From assembly GCA_000004985.1 (NCBI GenBank), contig GG738894.1: a DNA stretch of 64,000 nt; one strand, written 5' to 3'. Below the pieces are notes generated by a model that made no database searches, had not been told where the DNA came from, and worked only from the letters and a program-made list of their open reading frames with translations. The position numbers and the translations under genes were made by a program. Origin of the DNA: Naegleria gruberi. Lineage: Eukaryota. The first letter of the stretch is position 1; each line of letters starts with the position of its first letter. Shown in pieces: positions 16,001 to 64,000 of this stretch.

Positions 16001-17422
16001 AGAGTTGAAAGGGCTAGATACAATCTTTATTAATTTGGGATATTCATTTAGTTTCAATGAGAAAACAGAAGAAACTATTTTTTCTGAACACTCAGTTATT
16101 GACACATTCCTTATTAGAAAGCTTTCTCCTATCTGTGAAGGAGGAGCACGCTTCAATTCATTCAATAATACTTGTGACTGTTTGAGTGGATTTTATGGAG
16201 AGAAATGTCAAGCAATTACTTGCAATGGAACAATATCATCAGATGCAACAAGTTGTAATGGAAAGGGAACTTGTGTTGAATTAGATGTTTGTGAATGTTT
16301 GAATGGATTTGAAGGGCAGTATTGTGAAAAATCTATTGACAAGTTGGCAACCGATCAGTCAACAATTTTGATTGTTTCCATTGTCATTCCTATTCTTGGA
16401 GTAGGTCTGATTATCGTGATATTGATTGTAATTATTGTCATAGCATTACTACTTTTCAAAAAGAAGAAATCAAAGGAAATTAATGAAATTGCAACTGCAA
16501 ACATTGTGGAAATGTCAGAATTTCCAAGTAGTTCAATCATTATTTCATCATCACTTGGTTCTGACATGTCAGAAAAGGAAGACATACTTTCTAGGTATAT
16601 TAATATGATTAGAGTTGGGCAAGGCGCATTTGGAAGTGTTTTCAAAGTGACAGATACAAAGAGTGGAAATAAGGTAAAAGCAATCAAGATTGTGAGATTT
16701 GAATCATTCACCGATTTGAACACAATTATGAAAGAAGCATCTCAATTGAGTAATATCAATCATCCAAATATATTGCGAGTGAATGATTATTTCATCACTA
16801 ATGACAATTTGCTTTGTATAGATATGGATTATTATGAGAATGGTGACTTGACAAGGTTTACAAAGAAGGAAATATGTTCTGAAGATATTATTCGCAAGAT
16901 TATGAAACAAATGTTAAGTGCATTGAATTATGTCCACTCAGAATTGTCAATCATTCATAGAGATATCAAACCTTCAAATATTTTTATTCGAAAACTTTCT
17001 GGAAATGACATTGAAGTTGTTTTAGCTGATTTTGGATTGGCTAAAAAGTATCAAGAAATGAAAGGTCAATCCTATGCTGGAACTCCACTTTTTATGAGGT
17101 TTGTTTTATAATTATGCATTAGTTTTAAACTTTTTAAAGTCCTGAAATTGCACTGGGCAGCTCATATTCATTCAATACTGATATTTTCTCACTGGGAGTT
17201 TCGATTTATCAAATCATGACAAAAGACGAAACCATTCCTATTGGAAATTTATTGATGGGAAATCAATTAGCAAATGCAGAAGCCATTCTCACCCAACAAA
17301 TGAAACAGAATACTAGTTACTCGAATGAATTGATTGAAATTGTTATGAAAATGTTGGATAAGAATCAAGAAACTCGATCAAGTGCTGTTCAACTTCTTCA
17401 AATGCCTTATTTCAAACACTAA
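13032..17422 (+). CDS. Receptor-like Ser/Thr protein kinase with an NHL-repeat ectodomain and EGF-like modules
   Basis: Exons are 13032-13560, 13600-13858, 13912-14970, 15020-17098 and 17140-17422, joining track ORFs 12837.., 13979.., 15087.. and 17216... The GT..AG introns are 39, 53, 49 and 41 nt, and all junction phases were checked against the track frames. The N-terminus is signal-like (MHNISISYWCVVILLFICFA). NHL-type motifs recur (LYIADTNNDKIRVV; splicing restores LYIAD|TGNNMIKKYD). EGF-like Cys patterns are present (CDCLSGFYGEKCQ, CECLNGFEGQYCE). A TM helix follows (ILIVSIVIPILGVGLIIVILIVIIVIALLLF). Kinase motifs are GQGAFGSV, AIK, HRDIKPSN, DFG and GTPLFM|SPE, the last restored by the final splice. 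Confidence 0.9.
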
Positions 17423-25499: not shown

Positions 25500-26654
25500 A
25501 TGCAATACGATTCAGAAGAATTCATTCCTCCAGCCATTTCAATAGATATTGGTTCGGGTAGGTTTAAATGTGGCTTCTCTGGAGAAGAGGCTCCACTCTT
25601 TGACATGCCAACCATTTGTGGTAGAACTGCAACATCACCAATGCATTACTACAACGGTCACAGGACTACTGGCTACCAGGCTAAACCAGATAAACCCGAT
25701 GATAAATTCTTTGGTGAGGAGGTTCTCTTGCAAAGGAGTTACTTGACAATGAATTATTTCATTGAGAATGGAGTTGTAGTGAATTGGGATAATTATGAAT
25801 ATGCAATGCATCACATGCTCTATAAGAAAATGAAAGTTGAACCAGAATGTCATCCAGTGATATTGAATAGCCTGCCTCATAATCCAAGGGCTGATAAGGA
25901 AAAAGCAACACAGATCATGTTTGAAACATTCAATATACCAGCCATTTATTTTGCAAATTCAGCACAAATGGCATTGTTTGCCTCGGGGAGAACTTTTGGA
26001 GTTTCATTATTGTGTGGTGATGGAGTTTCATTGGTAGCTCCATTCACAGATGATCTCCGTGCCAACGATGTTTATAGAATGAATTTTGGTGGAAGAGATT
26101 TGAATGATTACTTATTGAAATTGGTCATGTCGAGAGGAAAATGTTCATTGACAGAATTTATTGGAAGGGAAGTCATGAGGGAAATTAAGGAAAGTGGCTA
26201 TTTCACATGTGACACCTCTGAGAAGATAACGAAAAAGTATTTTACTTTACCTGATGGATCCAGGATTGTCATGGAGGAGGAATTATTGGAATGTACAGAA
26301 CCATTATTTAATGTTGAATTGATTTCATCGAGTTTTCAATTTTCTGGTTTGCACGAAATGTTAAATCATTCCATTTCTAACATGCCAATTGAATATAGAA
26401 AAGATCTTTATTCGAATATAGTTCTCTCAGGAGGAACAACACTTTTCAATGGATTTAAGAAGAGATTGGAAAGTGAAATGGATTCCATCTCAAAATCAAA
26501 ACTTTCCATTATTGCTCCTTCTCAAAGAAACCATTCCATTTGGTTAGGTCAATCAATCTATAGCTCCCTAGAATCATTTCAATCCATATGGAAAACAAAG
26601 GAAGAATATGATGAATCGGGTCCAGGTGTTGTGTCACGAAGGCCTTGTTGGTAA
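25500..26654 (+). CDS. Divergent actin-like / actin-related protein
   Basis: The 384-aa ORF is collinear with actin: IDIGSGRFKCGFSGEEAP, NPRADKEKATQIMFETFNIPAIYFANSAQMALFASGRT, GGRDLNDYL, LPDG, IVLSGGTTLFNGFKKRLESE, WLGQSIYSSLESFQSIWKTKEEYDESG. Confidence 0.9.
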   Translation: MQYDSEEFIPPAISIDIGSGRFKCGFSGEEAPLFDMPTICGRTATSPMHYYNGHRTTGYQAKPDKPDDKFFGEEVLLQRSYLTMNYFIENGVVVNWDNYEYAMHHMLYKKMKVEPECHPVILNSLPHNPRADKEKATQIMFETFNIPAIYFANSAQMALFASGRTFGVSLLCGDGVSLVAPFTDDLRANDVYRMNFGGRDLNDYLLKLVMSRGKCSLTEFIGREVMREIKESGYFTCDTSEKITKKYFTLPDGSRIVMEEELLECTEPLFNVELISSSFQFSGLHEMLNHSISNMPIEYRKDLYSNIVLSGGTTLFNGFKKRLESEMDSISKSKLSIIAPSQRNHSIWLGQSIYSSLESFQSIWKTKEEYDESGPGVVSRRPCW

Positions 26655-28382: not shown

Positions 28383-31300
28383 ATGGTTATTATTCGAAAG
28401 GTTTACTTGTCTAAACCTTGGTGGTTATTTGTGCTACTGTTTAGCTGCATCGTTTTCACAATACACAACAACAACCTTGTTCATTCTAAATCGCCTTCTC
28501 TATACATTCCACAAGTTTCGGATACAAGCCAGACTAATAACATTCCATCTTCTCTATCATCAACAAGTTCCACCTCATCGGATAAATGTAAAACAACTAA
28601 TCCCTTCATATTTTCCCTTCCTACACCATTCTTTCACTGGGCAGAATCGGATTTCAATAACATTGGTTCGAAAGCTTTTTATGAAAATAATTGTTTACAA
28701 ATTGAACAAGTAAATAGATATAATGGATATATTCCATATGATCAAGTCAAGAAATCTCTCACCACCACTTCGACAACATCTAATATTGCAGAATTTTTAA
28801 TCATTGACGATTATTCACTTTTCAAATTGTGGAAAGACAATATTACAAACTTCAAGCTCATTTCACAATTTGCCAAATCAACGAATCTAATTCTAATGTC
28901 CAAGAAGGAAAAACAAATTACATCGATGAGAGATTTGAAAAATAAGAAGGTTGCTGTTTGTCAACATCATTTGGAATATTTGATTTATGAATTATATAAA
29001 CTAGGAATGAGTTTGAGTGATATTAAATATGAGATTGTAAATTATGACCTCATGTATATGAGGGTTTTATATGAAGATATTGATGCATACTTTGTGGATG
29101 ATCGATACATTTTCACACAAGTGAGAAAGACAACTACAACTCTTTATTATCCTAGAGAGTTTAATATTATTGAATCATCACTCAATTATACAAAGGATGG
29201 AATCAACATGTTCAGATATGGTATTATTGTGAAAGATAATCCAAGTGTTAGTGGGCTTGAAGAAATTACAAGAAGATTCTTACTGACACAAACTCAAATG
29301 TACACCTTTTGTAGAGATAATCCTTTGGAGTGTTTTGAAAGATGGGTCGTCTATGATTACATGATTGATAATTTGAACAATTTATTGTGGCCTTCTATTG
29401 ATGGTTTTGGAAATATTAGTAGAGTTTCAATTACAAATTCAATGTCTATATATTTGGGAAGAAATCCAACTTCAACAGAATCAAAAATATTTATCAACCA
29501 GTTTGTCAATTCAACCATAATGGATGAGATTATTTCGAATTGTACTGATAATTTGTGTACAGGCATAGATGGATCTGTATTGAATATTACAGGACTTGCC
29601 TATTCAGATGCAACTCCAACATTTTGTGAGGATTACATATTCCCATATCCACTCTCTTGTAAGAGATATTACTTGTACTTTAGATTGTACTGCTCATTTG
29701 TTCCATTCCTTATTGGTTCCCTAATTAATTTGATATTTGCTGTCATTGTTCCATTCATGAGAAGTGAACACTTGATGAAGCATCGTTTCATAGCCCCATT
29801 TGTAACACCAGTTTGCTTTTCAGGATTTTTACTCTTCTCTGCTATATTATTTTGCAGGTTTTCCTATTTTCCTGAGAATGTCATTTACGGTTTGGCAAGT
29901 GCCTGTATCGTTACAGTTATTATTACACGTTCCATGAATGTGATTCGTTACTTTTATGTGAGAAATATGTTCAAGCTCATGAAAAAGAGGAATAAGAATG
30001 AAAATAATGGATCAGCATACAATTTCTCAATGAAAGAAGATAAGGAAGTATTGGATAGGAATATTCGGTTTCACAGAGTTGCAGCATCCAAATTGGTCTT
30101 TGTTATTATTTGGATAGTACTGGTAGTACTTATTGCTCCGTCATTTTTCATAGCTCAATACTATGCTCCGGAGAATTATATTATAAGAAATGGAATTTCC
30201 ATTATTGTCTATGTATTGGCAACATTTTTCATGGTTTTCCTCTTTATTTTTGATTTGATTGTTAATAGAAAGAGATTGAAAAAGAGAGGTTTCATTTCCT
30301 TCATTCTATTCGACGATCCACTATTGTACAGATTGGAATTATTATTGTGTGGGTTTGAATTGATTTCAATTGTTTGGATTTCTCTCAGTGATTACTATGT
30401 CTATAACATTGCTGCCTTCTCTGCACAAGCTGTTGGTTTCCTTTCTTTGGGCCTTTCTGGTGCTGTAACATGGTCTTATGGATTTGCAGCAGCTGTCATT
30501 CTCTATAGACGTGGCAAGAAGTTTATCATGTCCAAAGTTTATAGAAGAAGAGCAATGAAAAGTAATTCAAACCTCTCTACAGAATTGAGTGGAAGTGCAA
30601 TCCAAGCTGATTTCTTGGAAAAGTTAATTGAAAATGATGATTTTTATTCTCTTCTTGAAGGTATGTTATAGATTGAATAGTTACGAATTTAATGCTTGTA
30701 TAGATTATGCTAAGAAGGAATTCTCATCGGAAAATCTCTTCCTTTACAATGTAAGTTTTCATTAACTCAATCCTCATTTACATGTTCAATCTTTTTGGCA
30801 ATAGATACTGAGACAATATAGAAAAAGGAGAGAACTCTACATTTCGGATTTACTGTTCATTTACAATAATTATGTAAAGAATTATTCACCATTTGAAGTG
30901 AACGTCTCCTCTGAAACTAAGAAGAGCGTTAGAGAAATTCTCTACACTTACCATATGATTGAGTCAGCAACTTCTAAAGACAGATTCTCTAAAAGAATCA
31001 CCCAATTTCCAACAGATATTTTCCCAAATTATGATTCATTCTCGGGAGCTACTCCTTATCAGGCCTTTGATGATGTTCATTCATCGCCAAAACTTGCAAG
31101 TAAGGCGACCATGCCACCTTCATTTCAGAATAACAACTCTCCAATGATGGGTCGATTTAAAGATAGTTTCAGAAAGCTATCATCTGTTTCAGATAGTGAA
31201 GCAAGTAGGGGGGATGATCTTGTTGGAGATGACGCAGATATAGGATCAGATCAAAGCAGAACTCCTAGAAGAAGTACTGTAAGTGGAGGGGGACCAGTTA

Positions 31301-31449
31301 TTCCATTCAATCAAATTCAAGCACTTTACAATGATGTTACACAGAATGTTATGGATACTTTCAGTAGATTATGTGAAACGAGTGAATATCAGCAATGGGA
31401 ATCCCTTAATAATATGGCATTGTTCATCTCCAATAAGGAATTGGCTTGA
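28383..31449 (+). CDS. Seven-transmembrane RGS-domain receptor with an extracellular solute-binding-protein-like domain (7TM-RGS, copy 1)
   Basis: Exons are 28383-30660, 30704-30750 and 30805-31449, with introns of 43 and 54 nt (GTATGT and GTAAGT donors) and phases checked. The N-terminus is signal-like (WWLFVLLFSCIVFTI). The ectodomain carries a type-2 PBP pattern (ITSMRDLKNKKVAVCQHHLEYLIYELYKLGMSLSDIKYEIV...YEDIDAYFVDD). Seven hydrophobic helices follow. The RGS box appears only after splicing (FYSLLE|DYAKKEFSSENLFLYN|ILRQYRKRRELYISDLLFIYNNYVKNYSPFEVN...). Confidence 0.85.
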
Positions 31450-34085: not shown

Positions 34086-37000
34086 ATGCCTCAAAGTAGA
34101 ACAATTACACCAAATTTTCCCTCCATCAACATGTTCCTATTTCATCGAGAACCGTACTTTTTAGATTCGAGTGAGGATAAAAATCGTATTCAAATCAACA
34201 ACAAGAACAATAATAGGGATGATGGAGAAGCAAAAACAATATTAAGGATGAGAAGTTTGGATGAAACTGTGCGGGATGATGATACGCATTCTTCTTCAAT
34301 ACATCATCAAGAAGCCTTGGAACATGTTTTTGGTAAGACAAGAACATCTTCCGCTACAACGAGAACAGTATCACAAAATTCAAGGAATACTAATTATTTT
34401 AATGCTAATACAATAGCAAAAAGCGAGAATAACAACAACTACAAGAAAAACCTTATTAATCACCTGATAATATTATTATTAATTACACTCTTAGTTGTAC
34501 TTCCAACCTTTGTAGAGTGCCTACATCCATTCGCCACATACAATTGGAACAATGATGATGAGATTTGGTTTGCTCAGTCGGCACCATTTTCTGGCCCTAG
34601 TAGCACAATTGGGACAGGTAAGTAGTATCAACATGTAAATGTTCTATAGTGAGTACTTTAATTAGAATTGAGAAATGGAATATTAGCTGCTTTTAATGAA
34701 ATCAACTCTGTTGGAGGTATATTCGGAAAGAAGAAGCTGAGATTGATCAGTATGGACGATGGCTATGAACCACCCAATACAGTTCGCAACATTAATAATT
34801 TTCTGAATGGAAACAAGACAATATTTGGATTTATTGGAGTGGTAGGCTCACCCACTATTCTTGCAGCCTATGATTTGGTAGTGTCGTCTGGTCTTCCTCT
34901 GATTGGAAGTTACACAGGAGCTACATTTTTGAGACAGCCCTTTCATGCAAATTTTGTAAACATTAGACCATCATACTATGATGAAACAGCTGCAATTATG
35001 GATGTATTGATTGGAAAAAACATGGCGAGGAAAATATCAGTCCTTCATCAAGATGATCCTTTTGGAATTAATGGATATGAAGGAGTTAAACGTATACTTG
35101 ACCATATGGGAATTCCAATGTGTTCATCAGGAAGTTATCAAAGAAACACACTCAACGTTGAGGATGCATTCTACAAGATTGCAAAGTGTGATCCAGATGC
35201 TATTGTTGTAGTGGCACTGTATGCACCAGCAACAAAATTCATCAAAATGGTTACCAACTCGACCCTTTACCGAAAGGATATTTTATTTGCAGCAACCTCA
35301 ATAGCCAGCGATTTAATTGTAAAGGAGCTAGGCCCTGAAATTGCTCCAAGAGTTCTGTTTTCACAAGTTGCCCCTTCTCCAACAGATACATCCTCGACCC
35401 TTGTTAAATCTTTCATCACCGCAAGGAAATCAATAGATTCTAATTTTACACAAGGTACATTTATTGAAATAGAGGGATATATTGCTGGAAAAATGACGTA
35501 TCACTTGCTCCACAGAATAATTGGATACATGTCCCCCAGTAACATGCTGACTAATCTTTACTATTCACAAGAAGTTATGTTTGACAATTTGAAATTAGGA
35601 CCATTCTCTTCAGTGTCTGTCAAGGATCCTGTTTACCTTATTCAAACAAATTTTTCCACTCAATTTGATTGCAATCAAGGCTCAAAATCAGTTTGGAGGA
35701 CGAAAGCTGATTCTAACTTGAATTTCTATAATTATGCACCTCCATTTTCATGGTACACTTCTGGCACATGTATTTCAACCCCAGGCGATGTCATCAATCC
35801 AATTTTATTAGCACAACTTGTTTATAACAATCTAGGATCTTCTAATACCTATCTCACTAACGGAATTAAAGCCGCCTTATCCACTGCATATGTCCAGGGA
35901 AGACCTATACATCTACTAACTCGCACTTACTCAGATTTCCAATCTCTTATTTCCACCACTCAAGATCTCGTTGAAAACTACTATATTACTGCATTGGTTG
36001 GATCTTCTGGATTGGGAGAAGTTATTAGTTTAAATACTTCCTCTATTGATCTATTCAGAGAGATATTTAAAACATCCTTCCCACATATTCCTCTGATTGG
36101 AAGTGTAGTTGACAATCCGTCAATCATGTCAACAACTGGTTCGTTGTTTATCCCATCCATGGTAAACATTAGAAGTACAATCATTGAGGAAATTGGAACT
36201 TTGCTTCAACATGCATTCAAAAGAGGAGTTACCAGAATATCAATAGTGAACTGTCCTGCATACGTCCATATCAACAAAATTTTCAAACTTTTAATGTCAA
36301 AATTGCAACTAACAATTGAGAGTGAGCATGGATGCTCAGATACCATTCTTTTCGATAGCATCTCGATAAACCCACAAGTGGTTCTAGTAGCATGTGCATC
36401 TGCCATTCTCCCTGGAACTCTTTTAAAGTTGGATGCAAGTAGTAATCTTAGACAAGATGCATTGTTTTTTGTTTTGGAAGAGAAGAAAAAGCTAGTCTTG
36501 TCAAGCCTTGAGAGTGGACCTAAAGGTGTACAAAGACCTATCTTATATAGTTCTTCATTCCCAGATCCAAAAATCTCGGCCGTAACCATTGTTTCAAGAT
36601 TTAAATCAACTACACCGCCTCTAACAGATCTTTCTGGGTATTATTCTTCTGATTTGGCTCTTGAAGGATATTTTATTGGAGAGTTTGTTGGATCAATATT
36701 GGGATCAGTTGCAGATTCAGCACCCTCAATAACAGGTCAGGCAATTATTGACTTTATATACAAAAGTCAACAGATAGTGGTGAGAGACCAAAAGTATGGA
36801 TACTTTATTAGAGACAAGAAAAATTCATTGTGCAATATTGGGTCGAGAACAAGATTTCTATTCCAGATAAGAAATTGTTCAACCTCAATACTATCAACAA
36901 CAGGTTTCCAACAACAATCATGTTGTTTACAATCTGTTTTAGAGGATTCCAGTACCCTCAACTTTAGAAGACCAATGCAGTTCGTTAGATTCAAACCAGG

Positions 37001-39125
37001 AGACACTGAACAACTTACCATCGAAGCAATAGATGATTTTGCAAAAGGAGTAATATCTTTCATTAATGATATTAATACCATGGGGAAATATTCATTTGCC
37101 TTTCAATTTCTTACTCAAACTTTTAATGGATCTTCTGATATTCAAATGTTAGCTAACGATTTAACCTCTAAACAGCAAATATTTGGTGTTATCGCTCCAG
37201 ATGTAGATTATGACATTGAAATGTTTACGAACATTAGTTTACCAATTATCGGCCCCAAAACTGCTAACATGCAATACAGAAATTACAAAAAAAATGTAAT
37301 TAACATCTACCCTTCCTTAATAGATGAAATCTTCAATTTGGTTGAATTTTTCCTAAAATTTAGTGACGCAATTACTATTGTTTATGAGTCCTTGGATGTT
37401 AATAATTATGCTCAACCCCAGGTATTGAAAACTATCCAAAATATAATAACTAACAGACAACTTTCAAGAGTTTCCCTCACTTGTATGACTTGTGTCAGTG
37501 ATCAAGCAGGGTCAGTAATAATTATGGCAGAAACAGAAGAAATCATTCAGTTTATTAGAGCAAATCAGAAGATAATGAACAGAGTTGGTTTGATTTCAGA
37601 AGCATATGAAGAGCATGATGATCTTAAAGAGTTGTTGTCCCTTCATTCGAATGTTTACATGTCCACTATAGTATCCCTCACAACAGAAATGACGGGATTT
37701 GTGGAATCTGAATTCACAAAGCATTTTCAAGTTTCGTTTCCAAACGACGTGCCAACAATAGAGTCTATAGATGGTTTCGTTTCCTTTTTGTTTGTTGAAA
37801 AAGTATTTGAGTCATTCTTAGATAGAATACAACCAAGACAACAACAGGCTTTCATTGACAAGATATATAGTCTCTCTGTTTTAGATATTGGTGACATTAC
37901 TCTTGGAAAGTTCACCAATACCTGCAATCAAGGAACAAGAAGATTGTACGTTAGCAGATTTTCCCTTAGTAACACAAGTGAAGTCATAACAGTCACAGAA
38001 CCAAACAGTCTTTTCACAATTTCAACATGTGGGTATAACTTCCCTTCCCCTGCAGTCATGGATTATCTTTATTATATTCTAATTTCTATATTGGCTATAA
38101 TTTTTTTGATTGTAGCCATGGGAATATCAGGTTTATTAATTTACAGACAGTATAAGGCTAAAAAGTCACACCTTCATGCTCCAAAAGGAGGAGTCATTTC
38201 TTTTGCGTTTACTGATATTCAAAATTCTACTGTATTGTGGCAATACAATGAGAAAGCAATGAAATTAGCTCTTGCTATACATAACAAGATAGTTAGGGAT
38301 AATATTAAGAAATACAGAGGTTACGAAGTCAAAACTCAAGGGGATTCATTCTTTGTTGCTTTTAGAAAGATAGAAGATTGTATTAATTGGGCATTCTCTG
38401 TTCAAAGTGATTTATTGAAAGCAAATTGGCCATCTGATATTATTACACAGTATGATTGTAGACCAGAATTTGAGGAAGGAACAAAAGTTTTGATTTATTC
38501 TGGTTTGAGGGTAAGAATGGGGCTTCATTGTGGTCAAGCTGAATATATTTTTGATAAGACTGTGAAAAGACCAGATTACTTTGGCAACACCATTAACCAG
38601 ACTGCCAGAATTCAAGCTCTTGCAAGAGGAGGAGAAATATTATGTAGTGAGGCCATGTTACAAGAAAGCAAATATTTATTTAAAATTTCTGGCCCAAGTT
38701 TCGAGGAGGAATTGTCGCATCAATCCTTAAACATACCAAGAAGAAGCTCTGAATCCACATTGTCAAAGAAGCGTAGATCAGTTGTTCCTGGATCCAATCC
38801 AATCTATACAGCCGAAGATTTTGGATATTGCTCCCTAAAAGGTATTAAGGAGGAAGTCAGAGTCTTTACACTTAAAAATAATGATATGAAACTTAGAGTT
38901 TTTCCACCTATTGGAAGATACAAAAATATTGAGGAAACATCGAACAATACCTTGCGATCGATTGCTTCCGTTCCAACATTTGAAACATCAAGTATCAATG
39001 GAGATGATATCATTGTGCACATTCCTGATCAAGCATCAGACAACCAAAAGAGCAAACCTGAACGGTTGAACACTCAAGCGATTGAACTTCCAGAGATTAT
39101 GATTTCTGGTGTAGATAATAAATAA
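34086..39125 (+). CDS. Receptor-type class III adenylyl/guanylyl cyclase with tandem extracellular PBP type 1 (Leu/Ile/Val-binding, ANF-receptor-like) domains
   Basis: Exons are 34086-34617 and 34666-39125, separated by a 48-nt GTAAGT..AG intron in phase 1. The N-terminal anchor is LIILLLITLLVVLPTF. The PBP1 signature is LRNGILAAFNEINSVGGIFGKKKLRLISMDDGYEP...GFIGVVGSPT, with further PBP-like blocks downstream. A single TM follows (YILISILAIIFLIVAMGISGLLIY). The cyclase catalytic core is ISFAFTDIQNST...KTQGDSFFVAF...RVRMGLHCG...DYFGNTINQTARI. Confidence 0.92.
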
Positions 39126-46793: not shown

Positions 46794-49061
46794 TTAAAAG
46801 TCATATAATTCATTTTCCTTTTGAAGTTCTGTGAGTTTGAGCCACTTTTTGTACTCTGCTGTTTCCTCAAGTCTAGAAAAGGTATCAGATACATTCTTAA
46901 TGACTTCAAAGATGAGGATTTCTCTCAATTCAGAGTAAGGGATTGAGTTTGCAGTTGGTGTTTGCTCACAAACTTGTTTCTTCTCTTCAAACCATTTGTA
47001 AAATGCCTTTTTAGTAGAGTTTGGAAAATTGACCTCAAACTTGGAATAATTTCTCATATAGAGCTCTTCAATTTGGGCAGCCTGTTCGAAAGTTAAGAAT
47101 GAATCTGCAGAATTGACGAGGGAACTTGAACTAAATGTTCGTGAGGTTCTTGAATTGGATGTAGGCAATGAGTCAGTAGATGCTCCCATACTTGATTTCG
47201 ATCTATCATTACCTGAAGATGGGCTTTTCTTATTCTCCAATGATATTAACATTTCATATAACATTACATTTTCAATTGAAAATTCCTTCTTTGCAAACTT
47301 TCTCAATAATTTCATCAAATTCACATCTTCCAATCTGGATTCCAATGTTCTCTTTCCTTTTGGTTCATTGCCTCTGTTTGAAGAAAGTAATTTACTTATT
47401 TTTCTATAAATTTCAATAATCATTGCACTTCCACCAAGAATTAAATAACAAGTCAATGAAAATAGAACTGTCAATACTCCAATGGCAAATTGATTATTAT
47501 ACACTAACAGGGTGATAATTGTGAGTACGAGGAGTAAAAATATGAGTAACAAGTCTATCTTGATATAGAACGGATCATCAAAGAAAAAGTAGTAGTATAT
47601 TCCTTTCTTTTTGATCTTTCTTCGATTTCCAATCATATCCAATAGCAAGAATATTAAACCAATTACAATACATAGAATAATGACAGCACCAAGAGGTGCA
47701 TTTCTGAAATATCCCAAATAGGAAGTAAGGTAAACTTCTTTTTCTAGTATCATGAGAACCGAAGCTCCAAGAGGAATAAAAGGTACTGTTACACTTGTAA
47801 CTAATCCTAACCACTTCTTTCCCAAAAACTTGAAAAATTTGAAATGATCAGATTTTGAAATTATTGTAAACAAATTTCTCAGATAGAAATATCTCACAAC
47901 TGTTATAAAATACAGGAATACAGGATACATTACAACTGCATTGGCTATTCCATTATACAATCGAGTGCAATTGGCAGTAAATACCATAATCTGGAAAATG
48001 TTTCGCATAATAACAAAGAGTGGGCAAAGGTATGGAACAGCCAATCTAATTTTGATGGATTTAGTATTAAATGTCAATAACAGACCAATATAGTAGATAC
48101 ATAGAAAAAAAATTGCATAAACACCTTGGATTTCTTCATATTTAACAGGTTCAAAGGCACAGGTGGAGGATGAACATTCATATACTTCACTGTTCATGTA
48201 AGAAAGGGTGATATTGGAGATTCCAATACTTGAAATTGTTTCGTTTGTATACAATGTGATTTGAGGGTAACTGCTTTGAAGATATTTCACAAAATTATTA
48301 AATTCGAAACTAGAATTTGATAGAGAAATTTTTGATGACCTAAACAGACAATAATCGTGATTCAAATAACATGAAGTACGGTAAGAATCCCCTTTCACTT
48401 CTTCTCTGCACAATCTAATTAATGAATCACATGTTGTAGTGAAGTTGTTAAAATAATCAGTGACACATGAGATTTGGTTTTGATCTAGACTGTTGGAATA
48501 TGAAAAGAACAATGGTGCCAATCTCACAACATTTAAATCTTCAACCTGTAGGTATCTACCTAGCTTGTTATTTCCTCTAATCAACCTCAAAACCTTTGGC
48601 ATTTCTCTGTCAGTTGTTATGATAATTGGACCTTCATTTGATGACCAATAATCAACAAGAATACTTCCAAACACGCAATCAGAGTTGATTCTAACAGCTG
48701 AAAGAATGGAAATAGGTTTGATATCAGCATATGCAGAAGTTGAAATATTATAAATTTCTAATAATGTGTTAAAGGAACTTTCTAATATTTTCAATCGTTG
48801 GTCGGAAACTGAGTAAAAATCAGAATTTGGAGTAAATAGAATGATTCTCTTGTTTTCAAATAGTGATCTTGGTGTAGTAGTTGAATAACCTTTAAGAGCT
48901 ATTGCAATAATAGTTTCATTGGACGAAACTATCTGAATTGGTTGTTGACCATAAATTTCCTTCAATTGACCAATACTCGCTGTCTTTAACCCACAACTAC
49001 AAATCACACAGTGTAGTTGAACTAAACACAACACCAATGAAATCGTAAAGCTGATGTGCAT
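46794..49061 (-). CDS. Seven-transmembrane RGS-domain receptor (7TM-RGS, copy 2; intronless paralogue)
   Basis: The first ATG is at 49061 (MHISFTISLVLCLVQLHCVICS, signal-like); the track start at 49100 is GTG. It has a ~300-aa ectodomain, seven hydrophobic helices and an RGS box (LRKFAKKEFSIENVMLYEML ... YMRNYSKFEVNFPNSTKKAF). It shares family-specific motifs with copy 1: RYFY(V/L)RN, NR(K/R)(R/K)(L/I)KK(R/K)G..F(L/F)FDDP and the C-terminal DTFSRL.ET.EY..W. Confidence 0.85.
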   Translation of the reverse strand: MHISFTISLVLCLVQLHCVICSCGLKTASIGQLKEIYGQQPIQIVSSNETIIAIALKGYSTTTPRSLFENKRIILFTPNSDFYSVSDQRLKILESSFNTLLEIYNISTSAYADIKPISILSAVRINSDCVFGSILVDYWSSNEGPIIITTDREMPKVLRLIRGNNKLGRYLQVEDLNVVRLAPLFFSYSNSLDQNQISCVTDYFNNFTTTCDSLIRLCREEVKGDSYRTSCYLNHDYCLFRSSKISLSNSSFEFNNFVKYLQSSYPQITLYTNETISSIGISNITLSYMNSEVYECSSSTCAFEPVKYEEIQGVYAIFFLCIYYIGLLLTFNTKSIKIRLAVPYLCPLFVIMRNIFQIMVFTANCTRLYNGIANAVVMYPVFLYFITVVRYFYLRNLFTIISKSDHFKFFKFLGKKWLGLVTSVTVPFIPLGASVLMILEKEVYLTSYLGYFRNAPLGAVIILCIVIGLIFLLLDMIGNRRKIKKKGIYYYFFFDDPFYIKIDLLLIFLLLVLTIITLLVYNNQFAIGVLTVLFSLTCYLILGGSAMIIEIYRKISKLLSSNRGNEPKGKRTLESRLEDVNLMKLLRKFAKKEFSIENVMLYEMLISLENKKSPSSGNDRSKSSMGASTDSLPTSNSRTSRTFSSSSLVNSADSFLTFEQAAQIEELYMRNYSKFEVNFPNSTKKAFYKWFEEKKQVCEQTPTANSIPYSELREILIFEVIKNVSDTFSRLEETAEYKKWLKLTELQKENELYDF

Positions 49062-50371: not shown

Positions 50372-52936
50372 TTATTGTTTAGGCATTGTATCACAGTAAT
50401 CTGTGTAGAGTGGGATATCTTCCTTAAGACCCTTTCTCTTTCTGATAGATTTGATGAGTTTGTGAACTTTAGATTGAGGATCATAAACATTGTCTTCCAT
50501 AACTTTCCAGTGACTGAAACTACATTGAGGGAAAGCTTGTCCTTGAGTAACACCTCTCAACTCTTCTGTTAAACCGAAACTTTCCAACACAGGTAAATTA
50601 CCAGTTATACTAACGAGAGGAGTACCAATTACCATTTCAGTAGATTTGATAACACCTCTTCTATTAGAAATGACACTATAGACAGAACCCATCACTGATT
50701 GAGGACATTGAACTTCAACAAGATACATTGGTTCAACTAACTTTGGATCAGCTCTCAATTGACTAGCAGTCATGACACGAGATGTTGCTTGGAGAATTTG
50801 ACCAGCTCCACGATGGATAGAATCTGCATGAAGATTACAATCATTAAATTTGAATAAAACACCTCTCATTGCTTCGTCACATAAACCTCCTGAAGAACTG
50901 CTTTGTTGGAAGCTAGTGACCACATATTGTTGAATTTCATTAATATAGTCAACTGACTTGGTTGCATTTACCAAAATGTTACTACCCTTATCAGCTTCAG
51001 GTCCAAAACTCCAAATTCTCTTTGTTATACTAGGATCCCATTCAAAGTCAATTTCTAAAATCTTTGCTCTCTTATTTTGATCATCCATTGGCAATTGACC
51101 TTCCTTAATCATTTCAATTAATTCCTCACTGATTGGTTCAGCTTGCATGTATAAACGATTGTGGCCGTTAGCACTTCTTGCCATGACCATGTCACCATTC
51201 TTATTTGAAACTGTTTCGTGGAAAGTGACAACAGGAGGAGACTTTTTAATTTGAATTCCTCTTGCATATTCTTCTTCTAAATTCTTTAAACAAATTTCCA
51301 AATGCAATTCACCTGCTGTTCCAAGAATATGTTGACCACTATCATTTTGCTTACATTCCAATAGAGGATCACTTTGAACGAGACGTTTCAAACCTTCAAC
51401 AAATCGAGATAAATCAGCTGGATTGACTGGCTCAACTCCCATTTGAACTACAGGACTCACAGAGTATTTCATATTCTTAATTGGCATACATGCAACTTGT
51501 CCTTCTTCTGTCAATGTACATGATTTGATAATGTACTTGTCAAGACCAACAATACCGACGATGGCACCACAAGAAGCTTGAGTGATACTTTCAGTGTTTT
51601 TACCAACCATGACTAACAATCTTTGAATGCTTGTATGGAAAACATCTTTCTTAGCAATTGGATCATAGTTAGGACCCAAAATTCTCACCTTAGTTGATTG
51701 AGTCAAACTACCAGAGAATATACGAGCTAGAGCAATAAAACGACCAACATTATTACTCATACTAGAGCTAGTATTAGAGTGCATAGGTACCATCTTACTG
51801 ACATAGACAACCAGTGGTGCATTTGGATCACATTCCTTAATACCAGTAGCGTATGGATCTGTCAAATCTTCACCAGTGTAGAGGTTATCATACCTGACCT
51901 TTTGAGCCTCTTTAGGAGAAGGTAAATGGTTGATAATCATTTGAACTAGAGGTTTGTGAGCTGGGAGGAACTTTCTCATGATTGATTTAGCTAAAAGTTT
52001 CGGCTCCTTTCTCTTTTCTTCTTTCGTCAGAGGTATAGACAATGCACCAATGATATTTTCCAAATCTGTTGACAAAATACCTTCACTCGAAATTGTATGT
52101 TCTCTAACCAACTTGAAAATCTTGAAAATAGGTTCTAAAATGAATTCACAGAAAGTATGTTTCAATTGTTGACCACTTGTCGATGAATAAGGTTCAGTGG
52201 TAAACTTCTTAGTTGAGTGATCATAATAATTTTCACCCCACAATTTGTTAATAACCTTCTCAACTGGAAGTTTAAACTTCTTGCTATATAATTGAGCGAA
52301 TTGCTCCAAAGTGAAAGCCCAACCCATCTTACCTGATCCAAAAGCAATGTTACAATCAACTGGATCAACAGAAACTGACTCATCAGAGTAAGTTGATAAT
52401 AGAGCATTCACAGACTCGATAATTCTTAAAAAGTTTTGATAACTTTCTTCTTCAGTAAATTGCATTTCTTCAATCAAACGGTCAACCTTGTTAATGAAGA
52501 GAACTGGACGAATTCTTTCTTGAAGAGATTGTCTAATTACTGTTTCAGTTTGACCTCTACAACCTTCAGCAGCATCAACAATCAGCACTGCACCATCAGT
52601 AATTCTCAAAGCTGTACTAACTTCAGATGAGAAATCAATGTGACCTGGACAATCGATCAAATTAACCAAATGATGATCATTCTCCTTGTCTGGATTTTCC
52701 AATACCATACTCAAACTTGTTGATTTAATGGTAATACCCTTTTCAATTTCATTCTTATCTACGTCACAAACTCTCTTCTCACCTGCAGCATCTTCATCCA
52801 CTAAACCAGCTGCTAAAGCCAATTGATCAGTGAGTGTTGATTTACCATGATCAACGTGAGCAATTATACTAATGTTACGAATCTTGTTACTGTCGAGTAA
52901 GAGCCTTTCGAGTATTTCTTTACTGAACTTGACCAT
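50372..52936 (-). CDS. Elongation factor 2-like translational GTPase (divergent EF2 family member)
   Basis: ORF of 854 aa with ATG at 52936, collinear with eEF2 end to end. GTPase motifs are G1 AHVDHGKST, G3 DCPGH and G4 NKVD. Domain IV has the loop LHADSIHRGAGQ, and the C-terminus is FSHWKVM...RKRKGLKEDIP. Confidence 0.93.
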   Translation of the reverse strand: MVKFSKEILERLLLDSNKIRNISIIAHVDHGKSTLTDQLALAAGLVDEDAAGEKRVCDVDKNEIEKGITIKSTSLSMVLENPDKENDHHLVNLIDCPGHIDFSSEVSTALRITDGAVLIVDAAEGCRGQTETVIRQSLQERIRPVLFINKVDRLIEEMQFTEEESYQNFLRIIESVNALLSTYSDESVSVDPVDCNIAFGSGKMGWAFTLEQFAQLYSKKFKLPVEKVINKLWGENYYDHSTKKFTTEPYSSTSGQQLKHTFCEFILEPIFKIFKLVREHTISSEGILSTDLENIIGALSIPLTKEEKRKEPKLLAKSIMRKFLPAHKPLVQMIINHLPSPKEAQKVRYDNLYTGEDLTDPYATGIKECDPNAPLVVYVSKMVPMHSNTSSSMSNNVGRFIALARIFSGSLTQSTKVRILGPNYDPIAKKDVFHTSIQRLLVMVGKNTESITQASCGAIVGIVGLDKYIIKSCTLTEEGQVACMPIKNMKYSVSPVVQMGVEPVNPADLSRFVEGLKRLVQSDPLLECKQNDSGQHILGTAGELHLEICLKNLEEEYARGIQIKKSPPVVTFHETVSNKNGDMVMARSANGHNRLYMQAEPISEELIEMIKEGQLPMDDQNKRAKILEIDFEWDPSITKRIWSFGPEADKGSNILVNATKSVDYINEIQQYVVTSFQQSSSSGGLCDEAMRGVLFKFNDCNLHADSIHRGAGQILQATSRVMTASQLRADPKLVEPMYLVEVQCPQSVMGSVYSVISNRRGVIKSTEMVIGTPLVSITGNLPVLESFGLTEELRGVTQGQAFPQCSFSHWKVMEDNVYDPQSKVHKLIKSIRKRKGLKEDIPLYTDYCDTMPKQ

Positions 52937-61753: not shown

Positions 61754-62880
61754 TTAAAGAGAATTCAAAATTTCTTCAGCAGTTTTTTCCACCTCTTGTC
61801 TATTCAAAGTATTAACAATGTAAACTCCCTTCACTTGTTTATGTGAATCGGCTTTAATAAATCTACTCATGAGAAAATCCTTCACTTGATTGACTTGTTC
61901 TGAGCTTTTCACAAATTCTGGAAAGAGAGAGGAAAAGACAACTTTTTGTCTGTGAATGATTTCTTCCAAAATGTCAAGTTTTGTAAAGATTAGAAAGATT
62001 GGAACAGTGGTTGATGAGATAACGTCCTTGAAACATTTCAAACTCTCATTAGCTCTGTTGAAATTCATTTTCCGATATACATATTCGAATAGAGGTAATA
62101 AACTTACCTATTTTCATTCTGATCTTCATAACAATATTGAAAGCATTCACTTAATGAAACCATGAAAAAGATAGCATCTGGAAGAGGATTTGCACTAATT
62201 ACATGTTTCCATTTCTTTCTCTCATTTCTTTGTCCTCCTGTATCTGTTCTAAATTCGTAAAATATTGAATTACCCAATTAGTTAATAACATACATGGTCA
62301 ATTTGAAATTTTTAAATTCAGTTGATCCACAATTTACAATTCCGACTGTCTTTTTCTGTAATCTTGCCAGATCCTCAATTGTTGGCTCATAATTATTCGA
62401 AAGTAGAATTCTCTCACTATTCTTAAAGAAATATTGATGATTTCCTGCGAGATGAAGGAGAGGATACAGTTCTGGATTGTCAATCACATCACAAACTGCT
62501 GGATTTTTCAATAATTTGATAAAATTCTTGCAATTCTTCAACAACACCTCCAAATGTCTCCTTTCAAAATGACTGTCAACATAATTTTCCACTAGGTGAG
62601 CTAATTGCTTGACAATATTTTCATCATCACCTGTAATATTCCTTCTAACCTGCGCATTTGTTGTAATATTCACCAAATTTTGAAGAACACTATATTGAAT
62701 ATGTTCGGAATGAATTTTCAAATTCTTATCAACAACAACTTGATTGGAAATTAATTGTCGTGCAAATGATGATTTGCCACATTCACCAGTTCCCAGAAAT
62801 ACAAACGACTTGTTGATGAATGAGCACGATGGAACAATTCCAGTAAAGAAGGTGAAGGGAGGAGAGGGCTTGTTCTTCAT
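61754..62880 (-). CDS. Heterotrimeric G-protein alpha subunit-like protein (divergent)
   Basis: Exons are 62294-62880, 62108-62248 and 61754-62054, with introns 62249-62293 (45 nt, GTATGT) and 62055-62107 (53 nt, GTAAGT). The P-loop is FLGTGECGKSS and a helical-domain insert is present. Switch I is KKTVGIV. Splicing restores FKLT-I-TDTGGQRNERKKW (switch II) and EDQNEN-R-ANESLKCF. The first ATG is at 62880; the track start at 62916 is TTG. Confidence 0.85.
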
Positions 62881-62969: not shown

Positions 62970-64000
62970 TTATTCCTTCCTGCACAACATAAAGATGTGC
63001 TCTGGATTCCTAGAGAACATTTTTTCAATTCTGTACTGTCTTTGACTAATGCTGGTAATTTCTACAAATTTTGTACAATCTTCATTATTTCCAGGGAATC
63101 TACCAGTCGCAAATGTTGTTCCCATACCATTAACAATTATTGTATAGTTTGTTCCACATATTATTTGTTTGATACCTTCTGATACGAGTGCATGAGGCAA
63201 TAGATTTGTAACTTCGAATAGACGGCACTGAGAAGTCTTATTTCCAATACCCAATTGACCATTAAAATTCAATCCAGCTGCAAACACTCTTTGGTCAACT
63301 GTCATGCAAAATAAATGACTTGATCCACAAGAAACATCTACTAACTTGATATTTTGGCCATCTACATTGAATTGATTAGGGTGAACATATTTCAACCAGT
63401 GGATAGAGGAAGAAGCTCTACTAGCTGAGGATTTAGAGGAAGCTGCTGAGGAAGGTTTTTCATGATTATAAGGAAGGAATTTAGGTATTAATGGCTGCAC
63501 CAACTTTCCTTGAAATGAGAAATCAACTTTTACATCCAATTCTTCTCCATTCTTCCCAGGTTCCAAATTAATATCCACTTTAACAAACTTTTCCACCACT
63601 TTTTCAGATACAGAAAATTGAGCCTCTGTTGGACGATAATTGTTCGCGACGAATGTACCATTAGCAATTACACCAGTCATTCCACAACCACATAGCCATA
63701 ATTGACCATGCTTTGCCAGGAATGCAGAATAATCACTTCCACACATTATTCCATCAATCTCAACAAATGTTTTCTTTGTTCTCAATCTTCTGTATTCCTC
63801 GGTTTCTTGTTGTGTTTCTCTCATAATTTCTACCAATCTTGGTCTGGGAACATACTTAAGTTGAGCCTTTTCTGTTTGTGATAAATCCCCTTTGATATCC
63901 AAAAATCCAAGAACTCCTAGTTGACCTTGAGAACCATTTCCGAATCCATACACTAATCCAGTATCCGTAAGGCAAATAGTATGATGATCACCACAAGCAA
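62970..64000 (-). CDS. RCC1-repeat (beta-propeller) protein, 5' end beyond the window
   Basis: RCC1-type repeats are GFGNGSQGQLG, CGSDYSAFLAKHGQLWLCGCG, SCGSSHLFCMTVDQRVFAAGLNFNGQLGIG and ICGTNYTIIV. The frame stays open upstream of the track start to nt 64000 (ACGDHHTICLTDTGLVYGFG...). Confidence 0.85.
   Translation of the reverse strand, partial: ACGDHHTICLTDTGLVYGFGNGSQGQLGVLGFLDIKGDLSQTEKAQLKYVPRPRLVEIMRETQQETEEYRRLRTKKTFVEIDGIMCGSDYSAFLAKHGQLWLCGCGMTGVIANGTFVANNYRPTEAQFSVSEKVVEKFVKVDINLEPGKNGEELDVKVDFSFQGKLVQPLIPKFLPYNHEKPSSAASSKSSASRASSSIHWLKYVHPNQFNVDGQNIKLVDVSCGSSHLFCMTVDQRVFAAGLNFNGQLGIGNKTSQCRLFEVTNLLPHALVSEGIKQIICGTNYTIIVNGMGTTFATGRFPGNNEDCTKFVEITSISQRQYRIEKMFSRNPEHIFMLCRKE

Follow-up and report, generated by a model that had tools for sequence, protein, structure and literature searches.

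A divergent G-alpha of Naegleria gruberi with glutamine at the arginine finger position, and its relatives in Heterolobosea

The closest described relatives of the protein treated here are G-alphas of the same genus. Naegleria fowleri has 28 seven-transmembrane (7TM) RGS proteins and 79 other RGS proteins, some of which have been shown to be GTPase-activating proteins (GAPs), and fast spontaneous nucleotide exchange is documented for two of its G-alphas (PMC9283941). The class of self-activating G-alphas, to which AtGPA1, TvGalpha1 and Nf Galpha5/7 belong, is defined kinetically, exchange being faster than hydrolysis, and has no conserved sequence signature (PMC9283941; PMC3971589). In Naegleria gruberi a lineage-specific diversification of G-alphas has taken place (PMC3971589), and the review PMC8584482 gives 44 G-alpha genes for this species, citing Anantharaman et al. 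2011. The same review reports deviant catalytic motifs and lost N-terminal membrane-tethering residues in some G-alphas of Dictyostelium, Naegleria and plants, and to that extent the general phenomenon is already known. Here we describe one divergent G-alpha gene, found at positions 61754-62880 on the minus strand of a 64,000-nucleotide stretch of N. gruberi DNA (GenBank assembly GCA_000004985.1, contig GG738894.1), which is called the window below. An earlier note, made from the letters of the window, had singled out this gene as a G-alpha with substitutions at the arginine finger and in two boxes of the nucleotide pocket; the reports of deviant Naegleria G-alphas had been missed there.

A second group of systems to which the gene can be compared consists of mutants of canonical G-alphas. 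In Gi1 the finger mutants R178C and R178M have a strongly reduced intrinsic GTPase and retain their sensitivity to RGS proteins, A326S releases GDP ~25-fold faster, and the double mutant R178M/A326S depends on RGS proteins for its steady-state turnover, for which reason it is used in screens (PMC3633906). The F332A mutant of Gt (transducin) exchanges nucleotide ~150-fold faster (PMC3633906). In human GNAQ the change R183Q, which is the identical Arg-to-Gln change at the same column as in the N. gruberi protein, is an activating allele of Sturge-Weber syndrome (PMC9670321).

The gene and its motifs

The G-alpha gene consists of three exons (62880-62294, 62248-62108 and 62054-61754) with the start ATG at 62880 and the stop codon at 61756-61754, and the spliced frame of 1029 nt codes for 342 amino acids; the outer coordinates are exactly those of the earlier note. 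The spliced product matches the G-alpha family of Pfam (PF00503) over profile positions 24-331 of 333 (E 3.4e-51, 174.8 bits, cut-off 48.8), which bears out the claim that it is a G-alpha. Its best solved relative is Galpha7 of N. fowleri (6NE6, E 6e-28), with transducin and Gi chimeras next in rank. No second G-alpha is encoded within the window. Homology and fold make the protein a G-alpha, and four functional hallmarks of canonical heterotrimeric subunits are missing from it: the arginine finger, the NKxD and TCAT boxes, the alpha-N helix together with the lipidation site, and the tail of the alpha-5 helix.

The register around the finger was taken from three alignments, which were pairwise HMMER alignments to 6NE6, 1FQJ and 1GOT, a MAFFT L-INS-i alignment of 161 G-alphas numbered by human GNAI1, and a MAFFT alignment of seven sequences. 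The 161 sequences are the window protein, GNAI1 and the closest G-alpha relatives. In all three alignments D170-L-A-R173-L-Q175-K-K177-T178-V-G180 lies opposite D173-V-L-R176-T-R178-V-K180-T181-T-G183 of Gi1 without gaps, the anchors of the register being D173, R176, K180, T181 and G183 in Gi1 numbering. Since three independent alignments agree in register, we assign the finger column, Arg178 in Gi1, to Gln175, whose codon CAG was read directly at 62356-62358 (minus strand). The by-eye placement of a Gln at this position was thus correct. Gln175 is part of the linker 2/switch I string DLARLQKKTVGIV (residues 170-182), in which the Mg2+-coordinating threonine of switch I is kept as Thr178 (62347-62349, minus strand; Thr181 in Gi1). 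It had been suggested that the Arg of the nearby LAR could turn out to be the true finger. This candidate was ruled out: it stands opposite R176 of Gi1 without gaps, is also present in canonical G-alphas and is Leu in Willaertia, and no Arg is found in the finger column.

The other parts of the catalytic machinery are in place, as the earlier note had read them. The P-loop GTGECGKSS (residues 30-38) has an intact G1 motif GTGECGKS (residues 30-37; 62770-62793, minus strand) in the alignments, the helical domain is present, and switch II/G3 reads DTGGQRNERKKW (D198-W209; 62209-62244, minus strand) with the catalytic Gln202 kept, a stretch which is invariant in all orthologues. The catalytic Gln of switch II and the Mg-binding Thr of switch I are therefore canonical, whereas the finger and the NKxD and TCA(T) boxes are not.

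In the alignments the G4 box is TKLD (T267-D270; 61973-61984, minus strand), in the context LIFTKLDIL. The earlier note had reported this box, and rightly so, but as a loss of guanine specificity the change was overstated: Asn is replaced by Thr, and neither the Lys nor the guanine-specifying Asp is changed. Rac and dynamin/DNM1L have TKLD as their regular G4 box, and TKxD is found in EngB, Roc and SRP GTPases (bioRxiv 10.1101/2019.12.24.888222; PMC2575402). Because it is a normal G4 motif in Rac and dynamin and keeps both of these residues, TKLD in a G-alpha protein is, judged from the motif, no defect, and to speak of a compromised guanine specificity is unwarranted. The G5 region, aligned in the same way, has VNTLN (V323-N327; 61802-61816, minus strand) in place of TCATD, as had been stated, with Thr325 at the column of Ala326 in Gi1. 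A different splicing of the gene, which had been put forward as a way to regain NKxD or TCAT, was considered and ruled out: exon 3 is a single open frame that holds both motifs, so re-splicing cannot bring the canonical boxes back, and an orthologue that lacks intron 2 is colinear with the spliced protein.

The exon structure was reconstructed from the open reading frames and splice sites. Exon 1 (62294-62880, minus strand) contains codons 1-195 and two bases of codon 196, and codes for an N-terminal motif, the P-loop, the helical domain and linker 2/switch I. It is followed by intron 1 (62249-62293, minus strand), which is 45 nt long, of phase 2 and bounded by GTATGT...TAG. The donor, ACCAT|GTATGT, is at the identical position in the syntenic orthologue on an environmental Naegleria contig (ENA ERZ4903137; L001 below), where the intron is 42 nt. 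The same intron is implied in N. fowleri and in an environmental orthologue fragment (P0014), as the gene-caller fragments of both stop at a read-through donor (...ITM and ...LTM). Exon 2 (62108-62248, minus strand) codes for switch II and switch III, intron 2 (62055-62107, minus strand; 53 nt, GTAAGT...CAG) separates it from exon 3, and exon 3 (61754-62054, minus strand) codes for G4, G5 and a short alpha-5 helix and includes the stop codon. L001 has no intron 2 and reads through colinearly as ENR|ANES...FTKLD...VNTL, which confirms the ENR|ANES junction.

The public model of this gene is different. The N. gruberi 'predicted protein' XP_002672962.1 (EFC40218.1, NAEGRDRAFT_71997, UniProt D2VSM9) has 275 amino acids and is 98% identical over 73% of our query. 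The first 243 residues of the spliced protein are the same as in XP_002672962.1, which after ...EDQNENR continues with an out-of-frame tail, NHSQTKSCLF..., from an acceptor inside exon 3 and loses G4, G5 and alpha-5. Because the 342-residue splice completes the Pfam profile and the intron-less L001 reads straight through, this splice is to be taken as the correct one, and XP_002672962.1 as mis-spliced at its 3' end. The database entry is in need of correction.

Orthologues, nucleotide pocket and termini

Orthologues were gathered by an exhaustive HMMER search, in which the public partial model was the query, and by cluster look-ups. L001 is 62% identical to the N. gruberi protein, with a nonsynonymous divergence (dN) of 0.29, a synonymous divergence (dS) of 1.30 and a dN/dS of 0.23, a value from which we conclude that the gene is under purifying selection. 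The N. fowleri orthologue FDP41_006149 (XP_044559388.1) has 348 amino acids and 45% identity, and the Willaertia magna orthologue ABK040_005887 has 365 amino acids and ~30% identity. The four full-length orthologues have in common the Gln at the finger, a T-K-x-D box at G4, Thr or Val at the A326 column, the invariant DTGGQRNERKKW and the lack of Met-Gly at the N-terminus. At overall identities of 30-62% between the species, the clade has without exception GxxxxGK[ST] in the P-loop, the Thr that binds Mg, DTGGQ, and the Lys-Asp of G4. The fragment P0014 has His at the finger column.

In a neighbour-joining tree the four orthologues fall into a small clade together with C9374_004820 of N. lovaniensis (P0042), P0054 and P0012. 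P0042 has a Gln finger (FQKKTTG) and FTHLD at G4. With P0054 it makes up a second Naegleria paralogue group with Gln at the finger, THLD or TNTD at G4 (THLD being the Roc-type box of LRRK2) and long low-complexity N-terminal extensions; P0012, which groups with these two, has Tyr at the finger and TKKD at G4. Since P0042, P0054 and P0012 have no finger Arg either, the loss of this residue is not confined to one set of orthologues. The comparison identifies the substitutions as an old and conserved clade signature within Heterolobosea (Naegleria and Willaertia), a point the earlier note had missed. They do not look like decay, because the orthologues in N. fowleri, environmental Naegleria and Willaertia share them and because of the low dN/dS. 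These data support a functional, single-copy, divergent G-alpha paralogue of N. gruberi.

The four orthologues were also contrasted with 152 other G-alpha representatives at positions that are >=75% conserved in the latter. The clade departs at Gi1 positions K35, L37, S44, K51, N76, W131, D150, L175, R178, V201, F215, Y230, D231, L249, F259, N269, F274, K277 and A326. Among these S44, D150, L175, R178, N269 and A326 are residues which in the Gi1 and transducin structures line or lid the nucleotide. Two more positions agree with this. N. fowleri, Willaertia and the paralogous group have Gly in place of E43, the P-loop residue with which R178 forms the ionic lock, and the N. gruberi protein has Ala in place of F336, the relay Phe of alpha-5. 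The GDP-clamping positions changed are thus E43 (in most members of the clade), D150, L175, N269 and A326, to which F336 is added in N. gruberi. By its alignment the clade has a nucleotide pocket remodelled in a coordinated way, in which the core that handles phosphates, Mg and water is kept and the parts responsible for clamping GDP and for stabilising the transition state are relaxed.

Both ends of the protein are unusual. In a G-alpha the alpha-N helix serves the contact with the membrane and G-beta-gamma, and the distal tail of alpha-5 faces the receptor. The N-terminus is MKNKPSPPF, and the claim that it has no Met-Gly for myristoylation is correct, there being no Gly2. Only 29 residues precede the P-loop Gly, against a median of 40, and neither a Gly2/Cys lipidation site nor an alpha-N helix could be found in the sequence or in an AlphaFold2 (AF2) model of the N. 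fowleri orthologue. An upstream exon that would supply Met-Gly and alpha-N was considered and ruled out, since there are only ~90 bp between the ATG and the stop codon of the upstream gene, and since MKNK...FTFFTGIVP is conserved from Met1 in the orthologues. Where the canonical lipidated N-terminus and alpha-N helix would sit, there is instead a motif, F9-S18 (FTFFTGIVPS; 62827-62856, minus strand), of the form F-x-F-x-x-G-[IV]-[IV]-P-[ST], common to the orthologues of N. gruberi, the environmental Naegleria contig, N. fowleri, P0014 and Willaertia. This conserved motif may be a docking or targeting element. At the other end 17 residues follow the A326 column, where Gi1 has 28, which is also the median of 129 relatives (28); the orthologues have 17-18 residues past this column and C-termini 11-13 residues shorter than that of Gi1, so that the last ~11 residues of alpha-5, with the tail that recognizes receptors, are gone.

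The AF2 model has a Ras-like and a helical domain (mean predicted local distance difference test score, pLDDT, 92.1; predicted template modelling score 0.89). Helices 56-163 are inserted between beta-1/alpha-1 and switch I, and the window protein aligns colinearly with the orthologue. No helix is found ahead of beta-1, where confidence is low to about residue 20 (residues 1-16 pLDDT <50; residues 11-20 mean 44); over residues 1-20, the region of the N-terminal motif, the pLDDT is about 43-44. The alpha-5 helix is only 12 residues long (333-344). A Foldseek search with the model returned activated G-alpha structures, many of them RGS-bound (E ~1e-22, template modelling scores 0.74-0.81), and among the matches is 4EKD, in which RGS2 is crystallised with Gq R183C. 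Taken together, the missing alpha-N helix and the short alpha-5 indicate that the membrane and G-beta-gamma end as well as the receptor end are absent in this subfamily as modelled; neither loss, apart from that of Met-Gly, was seen in the earlier note.

Possible modes of control and the genes nearby

How could such a protein work? The reading towards which we lean, with a confidence only a little above even, is that this G-alpha binds GTP and loads it by itself, hydrolyses it very slowly, ignores G-protein-coupled receptors (GPCRs) and probably also G-beta-gamma, and is turned off by a GAP. GTP would be bound and loaded spontaneously, i.e., the protein would be 'self-activating' as several Naegleria and plant G-alphas are, intrinsic hydrolysis would be very slow, no GPCR would act as exchange factor, and switch-off would take place only when a GAP engages the fully conserved switch regions. 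The likeliest candidate for the GAP would be one of the many RGS-domain proteins of Naegleria. If no receptor drives exchange and only a GAP can switch the protein off, the signal would be carried by regulated GAP activity and not by regulated exchange. Fast loading, slow hydrolysis and GAP dependence are proposed because the Arg-to-Gln change at the finger and the change of the G5 Ala mirror GNAQ R183Q and Gi1 R178M/A326S. The changes at A326, F336, D150 and E43/R178 are indirect indicators of self-activation, and G183, Q204, E207, K210 and E236 (Gi1 numbering), which are RGS contacts, are all retained. The earlier statement that a G-alpha without its own finger needs external GAPs or is locked on agrees plausibly with the published behaviour of the finger mutants.

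Several points weigh against this reading. The effects ascribed to the R-to-Q, A-to-T and N-to-T changes are extrapolated from mammalian mutants. Bosch et al. (PMC9283941) assayed six G-alphas of N. fowleri, to which FDP41_006149 does not belong, and none of the primer-encoded N-termini of the Nf Galpha1-8 fragments that were cloned or attempted matches this orthologue. The AF2 model is that of the N. fowleri orthologue, calculated from a 122-sequence alignment, and stands in for a window protein with which it is 45% identical. The column of Gi1 Thr182, a key RGS contact, is Val or Ile in the orthologues; this might weaken or re-specify RGS binding, and since the other contacts stay, the RGS specificity may differ from the canonical one. 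Finally, in the 161-sequence alignment, where the finger column is Arg in 138 sequences and another residue in 23, loss of the Arg co-occurs with changes at E43, D150, N269, A326 and F336 (Fisher p 1e-3 to 6e-5) and is not associated with changes at K46, T181, Q204 or D272. This pattern is in line with the reading, but the statistics ignore shared ancestry, so the co-variation is descriptive only.

If the reading is true, the clade runs a G-alpha without a built-in finger, an evolutionary counterpart of the GNAQ R183Q and GNAS R201 alleles and of the R178M/A326S protein. A logic gated by GAPs rather than by guanine nucleotide exchange factors (GEFs), which was first proposed for plants, would then be taken to its limit in an organism whose 7TM-RGS receptors number in the dozens. 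An orthologue is present in the pathogen N. fowleri, in which G-protein signalling is being explored for drug targets, and the finding may be of relevance there.

A nucleotide-independent decoy or scaffold of the kind known from the plant XLG proteins, in which cycling is effectively lost and protein contacts are constitutive, is an unlikely alternative that nevertheless has to be weighed. XLG2 has Glu instead of the finger Arg, binds nucleotide poorly and still binds an RGS protein and G-beta-gamma (bioRxiv 10.1101/795088); the review PMC8584482 takes the deviant motifs in Dictyostelium, Naegleria and plant G-alphas to suggest reduced or lost nucleotide-dependent activity; and five or six nucleotide-contacting positions are altered in the N. 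gruberi protein. However, the XLGs are without the P-loop Gly and Lys, DVGG and the catalytic Gln, while the clade with the Gln finger keeps GxxxxGK[ST], the Mg Thr, DTGGQ and the Lys-Asp of G4, an invariance at 30-62% identity that is hard to explain without binding of nucleotide and Mg. Also the TKxD box, which works in Rac, dynamin, Roc and SRP GTPases, speaks against a dead pocket. From these motifs we judge a decoy less likely than the GAP-gated protein described above.

About equally unlikely is a G-alpha that cycles normally, its hydrolysis being rescued internally by the Gln itself, by an adjacent Lys or by a residue of the helical domain. The strict conservation of the catalytic Gln and the entire switch II is what would be expected if hydrolysis matters, and the N. 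gruberi protein and its environmental orthologue have two lysines right after the Gln (QKKT). The extra Lys is, however, not kept in N. fowleri (QLKT) or Willaertia (QIKT), and the Arg two positions ahead of the Gln is the R176 counterpart of canonical G-alphas, which Willaertia has replaced by Leu. The differential conservation scan gave no basic residue conserved specifically in the subfamily, and the same Arg-to-Gln change in human Gq is activating, not neutral.

A more speculative proposal, to which we attach a rather low probability, is that the whole clade with the Gln finger has reverted to a Ras-like control. The protein would be monomeric, detached from receptors and beta-gamma and constitutively loaded with GTP, and would be switched off only by a dedicated GAP that provides the missing catalytic residue in trans or else by a specific 7TM-RGS protein, with the N-terminal motif used for docking or targeting and the product of the syntenic RCC1-like gene next to it as a possible regulator. 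Were the variant with a specific 7TM-RGS protein true, the GAP activity of the receptor would be the sole input.

The narrower form of this idea, in which a dedicated GAP inserts an Arg or Lys as RasGAP does and the clade is Ras-like in mechanism, we regard as doubtful. This GAP would not be a plain RGS box, which supplies no arginine, and no candidate was identified. Retention of the catalytic Gln together with loss of the Arg is the Ras/Rho configuration, G4 is Rac-like (TKLD), and the elements for receptors and beta-gamma are lost, all of which this model would accommodate. In a closed G-alpha, on the other hand, the helical domain lies over the pocket and would obstruct a finger coming in trans. 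Moreover, the data can be accounted for without a trans finger, since RGS proteins accelerate the finger-less Gi1 R178C/M and provide no Arg in doing so (PMC3633906).

A decaying pseudogene or an artefact of gene prediction, as XP_002672962.1 with its truncation and out-of-frame tail would suggest if it stood alone, is excluded for practical purposes by the intact 342-codon frame over the whole Pfam profile, the purifying selection seen against the syntenic orthologue (dN/dS 0.23), the full-length orthologues in N. fowleri and Willaertia and the conserved position of intron 1.

Two receptor-RGS genes had been reported in the same window, and two were found, the second of which is a putative member of the family. 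The gene at 28383-31449 (plus strand; exons 28383-30660, 30704-30750 and 30805-31449, from the transmembrane scan, translations and splice sites) codes for a signal peptide, an ectodomain like the NMT1/THI5 periplasmic binding proteins, ~7 transmembrane segments and a C-terminal RGS box that after splicing scores above the Pfam threshold (30.2 bits, E 6.6e-7, cut-off 23.9), and it thus belongs to the 7TM-RGS family. Its RGS box is interrupted by two small introns and a long low-complexity insert and is invisible to Pfam unless spliced. The gene at 46794-49061 (minus strand) codes for a second protein with ~7 transmembrane segments by hydrophobicity scan, a region paralogous to that of the first gene (25% identity, E 3e-9); its C-terminus is RGS-like and stays under the cut-off at 15.5 bits (E 0.023), a score reached only with a Ser-rich insert removed. 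The RGS boxes emerged through screening for transmembrane segments, manual splicing and removal of low-complexity inserts; a Pfam scan of the unspliced long open reading frames of the window found no RGS domain, and a phmmer probe with the human RGS4 box gave nothing significant in the window. Since the genome is rich in such genes and the two are 13 and 30 kb distant from the G-alpha, they are no evidence of a partnership with it.

Directly upstream of the G-alpha gene and on the same strand is a gene with an RCC1-like domain (RLD) at 62970-63953 (minus strand; Pfam RCC1 and WD40_RLD). Domains of this type can serve small GTPases as exchange factors or regulators. The stop codon of this gene lies ~90 bp ahead of the G-alpha ATG, and the same neighbourhood, with a spacing of about 90-110 bp, is found in L001 (1-630) and in N. 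fowleri (L002, 4512-5891; L003, 1693-3072); in Willaertia it is absent. Elsewhere in the window are an actin gene at 25500-26654 (plus strand), an EGF-repeat receptor-like protein kinase at 15087-17111 (plus strand), an elongation factor 2/EF-G family GTPase at 50372-52936 (minus strand) and, at 34668-39125 (plus strand), a large receptor-type adenylate/guanylate cyclase with two domains like periplasmic binding proteins (Peripla_BP_6, Peripla_BP_A-cyclase, Guanylate_cyc), a member of the big cyclase family of Naegleria. From 1 to about 10000 the composition profile has zero GC, probably a run of N at an assembly gap or scaffold end.

Comparison with known systems

We found no description of the clade with the Gln finger as delineated here, of the parallel to R178M/A326S or of the corrected gene model. 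Nearest in descent are the G-alphas of N. fowleri, above all the self-activating Galpha5 and Galpha7 (the latter PDB 6NE6), described by Bosch, Jeck & Siderovski 2022 (PMC9283941). The N. gruberi protein belongs to the same genus-level expansion, has the same fold, finds its best PDB match there and shares the switch II sequence GGQRNERKKW. Galpha7 keeps the finger, R181, and an NKxD box (D275) (PMC9283941), whereas the N. gruberi protein has Gln, TKLD and NTL at the corresponding places and no alpha-N helix. A relative of Galpha7 in Willaertia (P0016) likewise differs from it: its G4 box is NKYD, G5 has an Ala, and the C-terminal tail is longer, with 24 residues compared with 17.

The Rac and dynamin type of G4 box has the same four residues, and Thr in place of Asn is in those proteins compatible with normal binding of guanine nucleotides. 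This likeness is a convergence at the level of the motif and means no kinship beyond the common P-loop GTPase fold.

The plant XLG1-3 proteins are, like the N. gruberi protein, atypical G-alphas without arginine finger and canonical lipidation; they are thought to stand outside the paradigm in which a GPCR acts as GEF, and they too occur in a lineage that makes use of a 7TM-RGS protein. Unlike it they have a large N-terminal extension and very weak nucleotide binding. As the N. gruberi protein is without such an extension and keeps P-loop, DTGG and Gln, it is by these features no relative of the XLGs.

The mammalian finger mutants (Gi1 R178C/M, Gi1 R178M/A326S, GNAQ R183Q and GNAS R201C/H) are altered at the very position of Gln175, and in the engineered R178M/A326S protein the A326 position is altered too, as it is in the natural N. 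gruberi protein; the engineered residue is Ser, and the clade has Thr or Val. These mutants are single or double changes, pathological or artificial, in canonical proteins that are coupled to receptors and beta-gamma. In contrast, the state with Gln at the finger is ancestral to its clade, is under purifying selection, and goes together with the loss of alpha-N and of the alpha-5 tail.

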